Below are positions 28,378 to 46,708 of a stretch of 64,000 nt of DNA, in pieces (positions within the stretch are counted from its first letter, which is position 1; each line of letters starts with the position of its first letter). The notes below the pieces were generated by a model, which was not told the origin of the DNA, did not search any database, and saw nothing but the letters and a program-made list of their open reading frames with translations. This stretch comes from Escherichia phage vB_Eco_ZCEC15, in sequence record PQ871103.1. One strand, written 5' to 3'. The position numbers were made by a program, and so were the translations under genes.

Positions 28378-28587
28378 TTAAATTACATGACTATTTATAA
28401 TAAATTCTTGCGGAACGTTAAAATACCCAATTTTAGTTAATATAACAACATCACCGTTAATAATTACCGGAGAATAATCGGCTGGAGCATTAAACTTCCA
28501 ATGGGCTCTAATATTATATCCATCAGAACCAAATGCTCGACTAGCCGGTCGCCCGGCTTTTTGCCATGCATAAAAATCAAATTTCAT
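28378..28587 (-). CDS. hypothetical protein 69 aa
   Basis: ORF between 56 and soc where T4 carries segF; no endonuclease motif. Confidence 0.5.
   Translation of the reverse strand: MKFDFYAWQKAGRPASRAFGSDGYNIRAHWKFNAPADYSPVIINGDVVILTKIGYFNVPQEFIINSHVI
28393..28400 (-). promoter_or_regulatory. late promoter for soc
   Basis: exact TATAAATA on the minus strand about 32 nt upstream of soc ATG. Confidence 0.65.
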
Positions 28588-36375: not shown

Positions 36376-36452
36376 TCATTTTTTCCATAGGCATCATTAT
36401 ATTTTCCTCACTGGTTAAAGATAAAGTAATTATAACACAATAAATTTAGGCA

Positions 36453-37295
36453 TTAATCAACTGCTATTGGATGAATAGCATTAAACTTATGAAATGCTTC
36501 TGATTTTTCTTTGCGCGAAACACACATGCGAAGAACCTTTAATGGCTCGTCTTCTTCACCCAACGATTTTCTCTTTTCAATATTCGATGTTTTCCAACGA
36601 GCTTGCTCTGGAAACTCTCTATTGATTTGCTCAAGAGCTCTATTATGTTTTGAATTACTACGAATTGAACTGCACCCGCCCGGAGCCTGTGCTTTTCCAG
36701 ATACAACCAGATATTTGAACAGGGCCAAATGCGGATAACCTTGATTAATTAAATTGAGAAATGCATACATATCTTCGCATAAATCAATTTTTCCATACCC
36801 AATTTGTTCTGTTGTAAGTTTTCCGAGGTCATACCATGTATTCGTGAATCCATATGAATTTTCACGATAATTACCCCAAGATGAAGTAATTTTAAAAATT
36901 GGTAAACGAGCATGACCATGATAATACCCGCAATCCATGGCATCTTCAACGTATTGAATCAATTCATAGAACTGTTCACGAGTTAACTGATTAATTTTAT
37001 CTACGCAGCGACGATCATCTTTCTTTCGCATTGAACTCATACGAATAGTAGTATCATCATCAATCATCCAAATTCGTTGACCTGCATACATATCAGTAAT
37101 TGCTTTACGAGTACCGGCAATTCCGTTTACATCATCAGGAATAGTTATAATTTTAGCTCTAGACCCATAGGCATCATAATAAGCTTTTTCTTCATGTTCA
37201 CGCACTACAATATGGGGTTCATAATCAGTCGGAAACATATCAAGGGCAGAAACTGCCCCGACACGCTGATAACTTGGAATTACGAATTGAATCAT
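36453..37295 (-). CDS. GT-A fold glycosyltransferase, probable beta-glucosyl-HMC-alpha-glucosyltransferase (T2/T6-type)
   Basis: 280 aa with IPSYQR N-terminus and DxD-type MIDDDTT motif; occupies the T4 beta-gt locus but is unrelated to T4 beta-gt. Confidence 0.5.
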   Translation of the reverse strand: MIQFVIPSYQRVGAVSALDMFPTDYEPHIVVREHEEKAYYDAYGSRAKIITIPDDVNGIAGTRKAITDMYAGQRIWMIDDDTTIRMSSMRKKDDRRCVDKINQLTREQFYELIQYVEDAMDCGYYHGHARLPIFKITSSWGNYRENSYGFTNTWYDLGKLTTEQIGYGKIDLCEDMYAFLNLINQGYPHLALFKYLVVSGKAQAPGGCSSIRSNSKHNRALEQINREFPEQARWKTSNIEKRKSLGEEDEPLKVLRMCVSRKEKSEAFHKFNAIHPIAVD

Positions 37296-37933
37296 TTAAG
37301 TGCCTTACATTTGTCAAAATGGTATCTTGTCATATTTGGCCCACGTCCTTTTAGTCCGCAATGCGGACATATTTTTTCTATCAAATTATGAGGTTTTCCT
37401 TTACGATTTTTAGACATCGTTTCTTTAATTATTTTAGCTTTTTCTGCGCCAAAAATTTCTTCATAAGTTTTACCAGAATTTTCCTTTGCTCGATTTATAA
37501 TTCCATATGCCTGCTCATTTTTACCATACATTGGATTACCTTCGCCTTTCATTCTTTTAGAATGATCAGGACGCTTGATTCCACGAAAGGCATTTCCGCA
37601 CTTATATCTTTCTTCTGGAGATAGTTTTTTACCGTACATTCCATTTAATTTGCCTGGAAAACTTCCTCCCCATGCTTCATTCTTTAAATTATATGAATCC
37701 GGACAATTAGCAGCATCTAAACAAGTTAAAATAATTTCTTCAACCTGTCTAAACATTGGTCCTTCATATAATATTTCTTTATTAAAGGATTTTATTCCAT
37801 ATTTCTTTTTAGCATGTTGCCAAACTACACCCGAACCATCATAATTTGGGTTGTGACCATCATGACTTCCTATATACCACTTTTTAGTTTTAGGATGTTT
37901 ATACTTATAAACATGTGGCACATTTACTTCCAT
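37292..37933 (-). CDS. GIY-YIG homing endonuclease (Seg-like) with C-terminal zinc module
   Basis: 213 aa; VYKYKHPKTKKWYIGS GIY-YIG motif; NUMOD-like GNPMYGK repeats; C-terminal CPHCGLKGRGPNMTRYHFDKC; overlaps gene 42 stop and the glucosyltransferase start. Confidence 0.7.
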   Translation of the reverse strand: MEVNVPHVYKYKHPKTKKWYIGSHDGHNPNYDGSGVVWQHAKKKYGIKSFNKEILYEGPMFRQVEEIILTCLDAANCPDSYNLKNEAWGGSFPGKLNGMYGKKLSPEERYKCGNAFRGIKRPDHSKRMKGEGNPMYGKNEQAYGIINRAKENSGKTYEEIFGAEKAKIIKETMSKNRKGKPHNLIEKICPHCGLKGRGPNMTRYHFDKCKALK

Positions 37934-38664
37934 TTTCCAGTATAATCCTTTTTAGCAATATGAGTTTCACCAGTGTTCCACCAATGGTCAACTAAATAAA
38001 ACTGATTTTCGTACACATGAAGACTTCCAACGTTCCATATAATAGAACCTGCTTTATATTGCCGCGATGGGTCGCCTGCATTCAAATCAGATACTAATTT
38101 ATCTAGTACGTATTTTTGCCATGCATAATCATTACGATAGCCTGCCCAGCAGTCATTGCTTCTCATATTAACAACTGCATTGACTTTCTTGTCACGAATC
38201 AGATACTGTACGGTATTCGTACACATGAAATCTGACATACCATCTTTATTGTAGTCAAACTGCATAGATGGACGAGTATAAATCATGATACCACGTCGAG
38301 AATCAGGATTTTGACCAAGTTCAGCTAAACACATATCATACTGGGCATAGTTATCTTCTGACCAGATGGCCCAACCATAATTCGAGTTAATTTCGCCTTT
38401 AGAAGATGCTACCTGCTGCCAAATCTTCGGTGTTTCACCCGGAATATCTTTAACAAACAAACTTTTAGATTTATACCATTCAAGTTCACGTTGAATGTAT
38501 TCATCATTAAGAGCGCCAAAAATAAACGGTTCATCTGCTACAAATGATGCGCCAATAATTTCAATAGTTTTAACGCCAGTTTTATCAACTACGAAATCTT
38601 TTTCCTTTAATGCAAGCCCCAAATGAAGACGGATTTCTTCAACTGTCATAGAGTCACTAATCAT
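37924..38664 (-). CDS. 42: dCMP hydroxymethylase gp42
   Basis: 246 aa MISDSMTVEEIRLHLGLALKEKDFVVDKTG.. matches remembered T4 gp42. Confidence 0.9.
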   Translation of the reverse strand: MISDSMTVEEIRLHLGLALKEKDFVVDKTGVKTIEIIGASFVADEPFIFGALNDEYIQRELEWYKSKSLFVKDIPGETPKIWQQVASSKGEINSNYGWAIWSEDNYAQYDMCLAELGQNPDSRRGIMIYTRPSMQFDYNKDGMSDFMCTNTVQYLIRDKKVNAVVNMRSNDCWAGYRNDYAWQKYVLDKLVSDLNAGDPSRQYKAGSIIWNVGSLHVYENQFYLVDHWWNTGETHIAKKDYTGKWK

Positions 38665-38817
38665 TTAAACCTCAATTGATACATTCATATTTAACTTGTA
38701 ACAGTAATAAACCCCAACCTATAATAAGTGTCGGAATCATACAAGGAACCGTTACGCTATAGTATATACTTATTATAATCATCAAGATTAAAAGCAATAC
38801 TGCTAAAATTTTGCTTT

Positions 38818-45950: not shown

Positions 45951-45958
45951 TATAAATA
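45951..45958 (+). promoter_or_regulatory. late promoter driving the HNH endonuclease gene
   Basis: exact TATAAATA on the plus strand about 33 nt upstream of the HNH ATG, followed by AAAAGGA SD. Confidence 0.6.
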
Positions 45959-45991: not shown

Positions 45992-46708
45992 ATGAATTAT
46001 AAACTAATTTATGAAAAGTTAATCTCTAATGCTAAATCTCGAAAACTTGATTGCTATACTGAATCTCATCACATTATACCACGCTGTTTAAATGGTAGCG
46101 ATGATGCTTCAAACTTAGTAGATTTAACACCAGAAGAGCACTATGTAGCTCATCAACTTTTAGTAAAAATTTATCCTTCTGAACCAAAATTAGTCTATGC
46201 TGCTAACATGATGACAGTTTCTACGAAATACGCTAAACGTAACAATAAAACTTTCGGCTGGATTCGTCGTAAACTCTGGGAAATAGAAAAGAATAAAGAG
46301 TTCTCCCAAGAGACACGAAAGAAAATGTCCGACGCAGTAGCTAATAAAGCAAGACTAACTTGTCCACATTGCGGTAAGTCTGGATTAAGCGGGAATATGA
46401 ATCGATGGCATTTTGATAACTGCCCAAATCATCCCAATCCTAAAGTTAGACCGCCAATGTCTAAAGAACACAGAAATAATATCTCAAACGGACTTAAAGC
46501 AATCGTTCTTGAAGAAACATCCTGCGAATTCTGCGGAATGATAGGCAAGAAATGCGTTATCGCAGCGCATAGAAATTTCTGCAAGAAAAATCCAAATGGA
46601 CGCAAGAAAACTGAAAAGACTGGTACTTGCGTCCATTGTGGTAAAGTTACCACTTTCGGAAATTTATCAAGATGGCATAATGATAATTGTAAATATAAAC
46701 CTAGCTAA
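45992..46708 (+). CDS. HNH homing endonuclease (Mob-like) with three Cys4 zinc modules
   Basis: 238 aa; HHIIPRCLNGSDDASNLVDLTPEEHYVAHQ HNH core; CPHCGKSGLSGNMNRWHFDNC, CEFCG..C, CVHCGKVTTFGNLSRWHNDNC; opposite strand to neighbours; 3 prime end overlaps gene 46 by 8 nt. Confidence 0.7.
   Translation: MNYKLIYEKLISNAKSRKLDCYTESHHIIPRCLNGSDDASNLVDLTPEEHYVAHQLLVKIYPSEPKLVYAANMMTVSTKYAKRNNKTFGWIRRKLWEIEKNKEFSQETRKKMSDAVANKARLTCPHCGKSGLSGNMNRWHFDNCPNHPNPKVRPPMSKEHRNNISNGLKAIVLEETSCEFCGMIGKKCVIAAHRNFCKKNPNGRKKTEKTGTCVHCGKVTTFGNLSRWHNDNCKYKPS

Follow-up and report, generated by a model that had tools for sequence, protein, structure and literature searches.

Between gene 42, which encodes the dCMP hydroxymethylase, and the adjacent glucosyltransferase gene of Escherichia phage vB_Eco_ZCEC15 (sequence record PQ871103.1) lies an additional open reading frame (ORF), which we identify by computational analysis as a gene for a free-standing homing endonuclease of the Seg type with a catalytic domain of the GIY-YIG class. 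The stretch of DNA analysed, 64,000 nucleotides (nt) in length, is hereafter called the window. A preliminary description of the window had reported this ORF of 213 amino acids (aa) as wedged between the two genes, and its coordinates were reproduced in full, as were its overlaps with both neighbors: it shares 10 nt with the end of gene 42, whose TAA stop codon occupies positions 37926-37924, and its own TGA stop codon and the ATG of the glucosyltransferase gene share the sequence ATGA (Table 1). The gp42 encoded upstream is 94-95% identical in amino-acid sequence to the gp42 of T2 and T4. The ORF is a real and intact gene, far beyond what chance would yield: it is matched by PHROG 314 ('homing endonuclease') at E = 1.8e-31, it has 69 protein homologues and it is present in 77 near-identical genomic copies.

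Table 1. Position of the gene 42 endonuclease, its parts and its surroundings in the window
Feature	Position	Strand	Remarks
Endonuclease ORF	37292..37933	-	predicted free-standing Seg-type GIY-YIG homing endonuclease gene; ATG start, 213 aa, stop codon included; from ORF list and sequence
GIY-YIG catalytic domain	37658..37918	-	residues ~6-92; motifs VYKY, WYIG, YDGSG, E65, N82; profile match to I-TevI 1LN0/1MK0
Linker/DNA-binding region with NUMOD3-type repeats	37382..37657	-	residues ~93-184; NGMxGK and NPMxGK motifs conserved
C-terminal CCHC (CxxC...H...C) zinc-finger-like module	37295..37381	-	residues 185-213; C189, C192, H205, C209
Inserted segment	37298..37929	-	632 nt, missing from empty-site genomes (T2, T6, RB33, others); from the alignment of 8 carriers and 7 non-carriers
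Endonuclease-linked tract	37933..38071	-	3' end of gene 42; holds all 23 fixed carrier/non-carrier differences
Patch A	38134..38166	-	codons for MRSNDCWAGYR; MRSNDVVFGFR in non-carrier T-evens; candidate cleavage or immunity region
Gene 42, dCMP hydroxymethylase	37924..38664	-	246 aa; upstream host gene and putative target gene; Pfam Thymidylat_synt, 7.3e-15
beta-glucosyl-HMC-alpha-glucosyltransferase gene (HMC, hydroxymethylcytosine)	36453..37295	-	280 aa; downstream gene; PHROG 842, 5.6e-89; Pfam TAGT
GC-rich hairpin	37243..37259	-	35 nt inside the glucosyltransferase coding region
MobE-like HNH ORF	45992..46708	+	238 aa; between rpbA and gene 46, its end overlapping the gene 46 start

To characterize the protein we collected its homologues from a large protein database (69 in all, 58 of them at 42-71% identity) and used a family alignment of 42 sequences, namely the query and 41 homologues. 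The N-terminal GIY-YIG motif of the preliminary description is readily recognized as VYKY at residues 8-11 and WYIG at residues 19-22, so that its two halves are ~10-11 residues apart (VYK(Y) at 8-10, YIG at 20-22). Y9, Y20 and G22 are invariant or nearly so in the 42 homologues and align with the equivalent residues of T4 SegA-E and I-TevI. The profile of the family matches the catalytic domain of I-TevI (1LN0) over residues 6-85 with E = 1.3e-3, and among the individual members 15 of the 42 are matched by PF19835 (SegE_GIY-YIG) and 7 of the 42 by PF01541 (GIY-YIG). An AlphaFold (AF2) model built on the family alignment (predicted local distance difference test score, pLDDT, 87.8) displays strands at residues 7-12, 19-24 and 51-57 and helices at 36-45 and 61-72, i.e. 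the beta-beta-alpha-beta-alpha order of the GIY-YIG fold, and its top PDB match in a Foldseek search is likewise I-TevI (1MK0; E = 1.5e-3, probability 1.00, target TM-score 0.68, root-mean-square deviation 2.8). It is because of this family profile and this predicted fold, rather than a Pfam search with the single sequence, that we assign the protein to the GIY-YIG class; the two matches, together with the alignment of the N-terminal domain with T4 SegA-E, bear out the Seg-like identity that had been proposed for it.

The region following the catalytic domain contains the NUMOD-like repeats previously described (NGMYGKK..., NPMYGK...). The Pfam NUMOD3 model matches the query at residues 125-138 with 18.1 bits, under its cutoff of 20.4 bits, and is found in 30 of the 42 family members with a best E of 4.5e-10. 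The C-terminal module, which had been described as a Cys4 module, is instead of the CCHC type, with three cysteines and one histidine (C189, C192, H205 and C209) that are invariant across the 42 homologues, and in the AF2 model it is predicted to form a beta-beta-alpha unit. A comparison of the C-terminal 44 aa with Pfam returned no family, the sole match being a below-threshold one to YnfU (E = 0.024). In the catalytic domain E65 is nearly invariant, and the surrounding Glu-rich stretch aligns, in the profile alignment with 1LN0, opposite the ERE(N) segment of I-TevI, which we take to hold E75; similarly, the YN of the family (N82) aligns with the YN of I-TevI (N90). The gene is under purifying selection: the ratios of nonsynonymous to synonymous substitution rates (dN/dS) against homologues are 0.08-0.54, values that are rough in that the synonymous sites are near saturation, and both the motif residues Y9, Y20, G22, E65 and N82 and those of the CCHC module are conserved in the family. 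As far as alignment and modelling can establish them, the domain architecture and the GIY-YIG fold of this protein are thus defined.

A megablast search of 50,697 phage records recovered the endonuclease gene in 77 of them at 95% identity or above (71 at 99% or above), all of these being Tequatrovirus-like. The 2.2-kilobase (kb) block from gene 42 to the glucosyltransferase gene has matches in 502 records and is spanned in its entirety by just those 77; the gene is carried by about one in six T2/T6-like phages. Most of the other records match the block in two pieces that together span 1580 nt, versus 2212 nt in the carriers, and hence display an empty site, and a T4-type group of records matches the gene 42 part only. 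In about 400 genomes, including T2 and T6, where gene 42 directly overlaps the glucosyltransferase gene, the two genes are joined by ATGA, and the insertion is the identical 632-nt segment in every carrier. The comparison of this junction across T-even genomes therefore reveals a sporadic gene (77 of 502 records) rather than a universal component of the locus. The earlier observation that T4 has no seg gene at this position likewise holds, the order in T4 being gene 42, beta-gt, segA and uvsX. Of the 77 copies, 75 are full length; the copy in OZ035785.1 spans 641 nt instead of 642, and that in OQ174502.1 (REP3), annotated as two genes, gives two separate tblastn matches, apparent interruptions that reflect either sequencing errors or early gene decay.

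Most GenBank records annotate the product as a 'hypothetical protein'. A few call it a 'putative homing endonuclease' or a 'site-specific intron-like DNA endonuclease', LR746311 labels it 'SegD', and a note in the GenBank record of phage G28 cites the conserved domain GIY-YIG_SegABCDEFG. Our literature search found no publication that names or tests this endonuclease gene, and it has been stated in general terms that putative homing endonuclease genes vary in their presence or absence in this region (PMC8056088). We hence regard the gene as an uncharacterised addition to a well-known class, the Seg-type homing endonucleases, and not as a new kind of system.

To examine the surroundings of the insertion, the flanks of 8 carriers (the window, and seven phage records and metagenome contigs) were aligned with those of 7 empty-site genomes and compared in 100-nt windows. 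All 23 of the fixed differences between carriers and non-carriers fall within the last 140 nt of gene 42 (38071-37933), and none was found on the glucosyltransferase or downstream side in this comparison. Carriers and non-carriers diverge by 17-21% across the ~235 nt at the 3' end of gene 42; outside this tract the divergence is 2-9% (mostly 3-6%), equal to the diversity within the groups. Among the carriers themselves diversity amounts to 0.5-1.8% in the tract, 0.6-1.2% in the endonuclease gene and mostly 2-8% further out, and this low diversity of the endonuclease gene relative to its flanks points to a recent spread. The tract is 79-82% identical to that of T2, versus 97% for the first 250 nt of gene 42, and its changes place DPSRQ for DSTRQ, YENQF for YSRHF and TGKWK for NGEWK in gp42. 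Compared with gene 42 of Klebsiella phage KPN6, the tract of the window is 77% and that of T2 67% identical, and the variants CWAGY and (E/Q)NQF are common to the window tract, KPN6 and Yersinia phage MHG19, all of which carry the endonuclease gene. We read the linked tract as foreign sequence that probably arrived together with the endonuclease gene. Thus the locus combines a precise, sporadic insertion and a low diversity of the inserted gene with a one-sided endonuclease-linked tract in gene 42.

Further upstream in gene 42 is patch A, in which the Arg-Ser codons CGC TCA have been recoded to AGA AGC (ATG CGC TCA in the non-carrier T-evens, ATG AGA AGC in the window). Records with the patch A allele number 134 (at least 90% identity), those with the 147-nt tract 86 (at least 95%) and those with the endonuclease gene 77. 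Two records display parts of this series: pSe_SNUABM_01 (L093) has patch A only, and phage vB_vPM_PD112 (L111, 1617-3866) combines patch A with the tract as far as ~25 nt from the junction, the junction itself being of the non-carrier form. PD112 has no gene 42 endonuclease and carries a segA-like gene after its glucosyltransferase gene. Both phages may represent partial co-conversion products or resistant alleles. The nested pattern fits what would be expected from conversion tracts of variable length that start at a break well upstream in gene 42 and extend toward the endonuclease gene, and a break upstream of the endonuclease gene is favoured because the downstream side is wholly without linkage. 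The fixed differences, the divergent tract and the nested haplotypes in these populations lend indirect support to a co-conversion of flanking markers.

The MRSND of gp42 in patch A is homologous to the QRSVD motif of td. Exon 1 of T4 td ends in ...CAA CGC TCA GTA GAT GTT TTC TTG GGT, with the intron directly following, and CAACGC is the cleavage motif of I-TevI, which cuts 23-25 nt upstream of the td intron site, in the QRSxD active-site codons. By this analogy, and purely as a hypothesis, patch A would be an attractive candidate for the cut site or the immunity site of the gene 42 endonuclease.

In every context examined, homologues of the endonuclease at 44-71% identity are encoded directly after a gene of the thymidylate synthase (TS) family (PF00303, Thymidylat_synt) and on the same strand. 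In Klebsiella phage KPN6, whose homologue is 70% identical, it lies between gp42 and a glycosyltransferase, and in Yersinia phage MHG19 between gp42 and a T4-type beta-gt; in five IMG/VR loci (L006-L010) it is again placed directly after a PF00303 gene. The same upstream gene recurs in seven further metagenome contexts, in which the downstream genes are variously a helicase, a dCMP deaminase followed by a family A DNA polymerase, an NTP transferase, an IMPDH-like gene and unknown genes. As a control, 80 IMG/VR loci were checked with a hidden Markov model for a TS-family neighbor. Such a gene was present upstream in 6 of the 6 loci with a homologue of at least 57% identity, and in 0 of the ~62 loci having distant or C-terminal-only matches. 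It was also present in four loci (L023-L026) in which a related NUMOD3/CCHC half is fused to another kind of GIY-YIG domain, one that contains the Arg. The combination of a constant upstream TS-family gene and a changing downstream gene indicates that the subfamily tracks the TS-family gene, which is the behavior expected if its recognition site were to lie in that gene. In one of the latter four loci (L024, 2210-2818) a 202-aa protein with the canonical GIY-YIG motifs YVYWVY...GYVGVT...RRFKTH directly follows a gp42 homologue, and the NUMOD3/CCHC half of this type is 33% identical to the window protein over residues 95-210. Domains appear to have been shuffled between endonucleases that occupy the same site.

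As to its expression, the preliminary description held that the ORF has no promoter of its own, and scans for sigma-70-like promoters, late promoters and MotA boxes were all either empty or at chance level: sigma-70-like matches around the ORF are as numerous as expected from shuffled sequence, the closest occurrences of TATAAATA, the T4-type late promoter, are at 28392 and 45951, and a regular-expression scan of 37800-38800 for the MotA-box middle-promoter pattern found none. A near-match to a promoter picked by eye, TATTGCTAAA...TATACT, was rejected as its spacer is merely 6 base pairs. An RNA hairpin masking the ribosome-binding site, as known for some T4 endonuclease genes, was likewise rejected, with the fold of 37880-37990 not being significant (z = -0.43). 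An alternative GTG start at 37921, right after the gene 42 stop codon, was considered since homologues begin with M-G-Y-V-Y. The annotated ATG is preferred because it is created by carrier-specific substitutions and is kept in KPN6 and MHG19 as xxA-TGG over the Trp codon of gp42. The substitutions in question, at 37936, 37935 and 37933, change GAG-TGG to AAA-TGG and thereby generate the endonuclease ATG; the same arrangement occurs in KPN6 as GAA-TGG and in MHG19 as AAA-TGG, and the fact that it is shared favours both the annotated start and translational coupling. The gene is probably transcribed together with gene 42 and the glucosyltransferase gene, and coupling probably initiates its translation at the ATG, which overlaps the conserved Trp codon at the gene 42 end. 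In the distant homologues L008, L009, L024, L106 and L108, TATAAATA is present as a T4 late-promoter consensus in a 30-60-nt spacer before the endonuclease start. In the window, KPN6 and MHG19 the endonuclease gene overlaps gene 42 with no TATAAATA before it, which suggests a shift from late-promoter expression to coupled expression between the distant and the enterobacterial versions.

[quoted passage not shown] When a carrier and a relative devoid of the gene infect the same cell, the predicted enzyme would make a double-strand break in the DNA of the rival, most likely somewhere in the final ~250 nt of gene 42, at a distance of about 140-235 nt upstream from the insertion point. The carrier genome would next serve as the template for recombinational repair, by which the rival would acquire the endonuclease gene together with the 3' segment of gene 42 lying in between, and the gene 42 allele of the carrier, which differs at many positions in this segment, would presumably be resistant to cleavage. 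The outcome would be intronless homing and a genetically localized marker exclusion. The nuclease activity, the position of the cut, the resistance of the carrier allele and homing are what we infer from sequence comparisons, and the marker exclusion suggested by the preliminary description would fit the precise polymorphism, the foreign tract and the low diversity of the endonuclease.

Several observations weigh against this proposal. With the query alone, Pfam yields no match at E <= 0.1 to any GIY-YIG model, and the score of TIGR01453 ('group I intron endonuclease') is 25.1 bits versus a cutoff of 56.05. In the alignment of the family profile, the segment holding the catalytic Arg27 of I-TevI is a gap; T4 SegA-E are also without the Arg27-bearing segment, and because they share this gap the absence of the Arg is a trait of the Seg subfamily and not peculiar to the window protein. 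A review of T4 mobile elements lists SegA-E as active, with the activity of SegD then undetermined. Further, ~57 records with patch A and ~9 with the tract lack the endonuclease gene, so that both could be pre-existing alleles rather than conversion products, and ordinary recombination after the insertion could also yield the nested pattern. Two distant endonuclease-associated genes keep CGC TCA, because of which patch A is not established as the target. With this retention and with 134 patch A records versus 77 that have the endonuclease gene, patch A as a strictly endonuclease-linked immunity site was rejected, and it stays a candidate. Neither a promoter nor a significant RNA structure in the start region was found in the scans described above, and expression of the gene is therefore presumed.

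Among the other explanations, the nearest one keeps the same element and the same homing but places the cut within a few tens of nt of the uninterrupted junction of gene 42 and the glucosyltransferase gene, with the insertion splitting the site and so conferring immunity. The enzyme would recognise this junction in the manner of I-TevI at an intron-less site. I-TevI and other GIY-YIG enzymes attach to DNA at the insertion site and make their cut 23-25 nt from it. Also in favour of this view are the crowding of the fixed differences at the junction (densest at 37954-37933), the position of the insertion, identical to the nucleotide in all carriers, and a conserved GC-rich hairpin found on the downstream side, 38-54 nt beyond the insertion point. 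Nevertheless, a junction break should lead to co-conversion on both sides, yet the glucosyltransferase side has no endonuclease-linked difference; PD112, with its carrier-type tract and non-carrier junction, would be hard to obtain from such a break; and among homologues it is the upstream TS-family gene that stays constant, the downstream gene and with it the junction sequence being variable. We accordingly view a junction cut as unlikely. A different objection is that the gene could be a decaying or catalytically dead remnant that persists since the overlaps and the translational coupling make its clean deletion costly. Such a remnant would be consistent with the overlaps on both sides, the lack of a detected promoter, the missing counterpart of Arg27, the sub-threshold scores against the curated GIY-YIG models and the two apparently frameshifted copies (641 nt in OZ035785.1, the split copy in REP3). 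However, 75 of the 77 copies are full length, the motif residues have been kept in homologues of 44-71% identity, with dN/dS of 0.08-0.54, the diversity of the gene is far below that of its flanks, as would be the case if it were still spreading, and the Arg-less motif is common to T4 SegA-E. Moreover, the clean empty junction is evidently viable, being seen in about 400 genomes. A dead remnant is, in our view, very improbable.

The patchy distribution could in principle also stem from repeated deletion of a gene ancestral to T2/T6-like phages, i.e. from loss rather than invasion, and its occurrence at the same position in other genera (Jiaodavirus KPN6, Yersinia phage MHG19) is readable as old synteny. 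But independent deletions would not all regenerate an identical ATGA junction, copies of the gene agree at ~99% in genomes whose flanks differ by 2-8%, a ~20% divergent foreign tract travels with the gene, and the gene, at 71.5% nucleotide identity to that of KPN6, is not more conserved than gene 42; repeated loss is hence hardly credible. Finally, the gene might be kept mainly for the benefit of the phage, for instance by destroying competing hydroxymethylcytosine phages via gene 42 or by stimulating recombination or amplification at the DNA-modification locus. The proposed target is indeed an essential gene of the modification pathway, the neighboring genes are DNA-modification and counter-defence genes, and a report of 2026 (PMC13096335) describes SegB as promoting the amplification of anti-defence loci. 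No sequence feature separates such a benefit from ordinary homing, though, and presence/absence polymorphism with co-converted flanks is the classic pattern of a selfish element, with most relatives thriving without the gene. A retention chiefly for phage benefit therefore seems rather improbable to us, and we retain the reading of an active homing endonuclease that cuts in the 3' part of gene 42.

A more far-reaching scenario, which we put forward tentatively and would on balance doubt when taken as a whole, is that these proteins form a distinct free-standing GIY-YIG lineage specialised on the 3' half of TS-family genes, i.e. of the dCMP hydroxymethylase and its relatives. This lineage may have spread across phage genera, even to phages that are not T4-like and have a family A DNA polymerase. 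A piece of the host gene would be dragged along at each move, and the lineage would so be one of the chief causes of mosaicism in the enzyme on which hydroxymethylcytosine modification is founded. The (Q/M)RSxD codons, the motif exploited by I-TevI in td, may be where it cuts, in which case it would be the free-standing counterpart of I-TevI in a paralogous gene.

Turning to the neighboring genes, the downstream gene, which the preliminary description gave simply as the glucosyltransferase, belongs on the evidence of PHROG 842 and Pfam TAGT to the T2/T6-type beta-glucosyl-HMC-alpha-glucosyltransferases and not to T4 beta-gt, a protein of 351 aa that is unrelated to the 280-aa enzyme of the window. 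Between this gene and uvsX the window has a 77-nt gap (36376-36452) with no ORF and no segA. The segA-type site and the gene 42 endonuclease site are filled independently of each other, because T4 and PD112 carry a segA-type gene at the glucosyltransferase/uvsX site and the window carries none there. The best phage record for the 2.2-kb block 36453-38664 is at most 98.0% identical to the window, yet the endonuclease gene alone has 100% matches, which indicates that the pairing of gene 42 and glucosyltransferase alleles in the window is a mosaic absent from the collection. The GC-rich hairpin within the glucosyltransferase gene (GGGGCAGTTTCTGCCCT followed by a T-rich stretch) is kept in T2 and, with a change in the loop, in KPN6; the record of Yersinia phage fPS-65 has a 'terminator' feature annotated under the matched region, possibly this hairpin.

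The window contains a second free-standing endonuclease gene, on the opposite strand, whose HNH-type product is 35% identical to T4 MobE and which is present in 59 of 503 matching phage records. A TATAAATA late-promoter sequence is located at 45951-45958, 34 nt upstream of this ORF, and its product contains three copies of the CxxC...H...C module found at the C-terminus of the gene 42 endonuclease.

The principal additions of this analysis are the one-sided signature of co-conversion and the strict association of the subfamily with TS-family genes. If active, the endonuclease would cause crosses of common T2/T6-like coliphages to show localized marker exclusion at gene 42, and would account for the sharp, ~20% divergent 3' patch in an essential gene that is otherwise 95-97% identical. 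The strict linkage of endonuclease and target family across very different phages would offer a handy system, beside I-TevI and td, for studying the target choice and retention of GIY-YIG enzymes. At a practical level, the 'hypothetical' and SegD labels can be corrected, and such elements can shift sequence between therapeutic T-even phages in cocktails.

Among known systems the closest to the window protein are the T4 Seg proteins SegA-E, for which sequences were taken from record MT984581. They have in common with it an N-terminal signature, Y.Y...YIG.H...Y.GSG...KYG..F.KEIL...YN..GG, and resemble it also in being free-standing between conserved genes, ~200-220 aa in length and sporadic among close relatives. 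BLASTP identities to SegA-E are 31-44% and confined to the N-terminal domain, the best T4 match being SegC (35% over 147 aa, E = 1e-13). The window protein differs from SegA-E in a loop between YIG and YxGSG that is 2 residues shorter and in its C-terminal half with the NUMOD3 repeats and the CCHC module, and its insertion site after gene 42 is not among the element sites of the T4 mobile-element review. Orthology to SegD, the label used in LR746311, was rejected in that the match (31% over 144 aa) is weaker than that to SegC; T4 segD sits between genes 23 and 24, and the window gene between gene 42 and the glucosyltransferase gene. Orthology to SegA was rejected too, with 44% identity over just 71 aa and 24% overall, and with T4 segA lying elsewhere, before uvsX. 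In its C-terminal module, CxxC...NM.R(Y/W)HFDxC, the window protein matches T4 MobE (59% over 22 aa), but the nuclease domain of MobE and MobE-like proteins is HNH instead of GIY-YIG and their insertion sites are unrelated.

With I-TevI and I-BmoI the window gene shares the family of the host gene, Thymidylat_synt PF00303, and with I-TevI the catalytic fold. Unlike these intron-encoded enzymes, it is free-standing, and it further differs from I-TevI in the missing Arg27-containing insert, in the composition of the DNA-binding half and in an overall identity of 18%. The mechanism proposed here is the same as that of SegF and SegG of T4, namely a cut in a neighboring conserved gene of the phage without the endonuclease followed by co-conversion of the interval and the endonuclease gene, leading to localized marker exclusion. 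The distances from cut to gene are reportedly a few hundred nt for SegF and SegG; SegG aligns poorly with the window protein (19% identity), and the cut site of the latter is read from haplotype structure alone. By its motifs and predicted fold, the window protein thus belongs to the Seg group and is the orthologue of no named T4 Seg protein.

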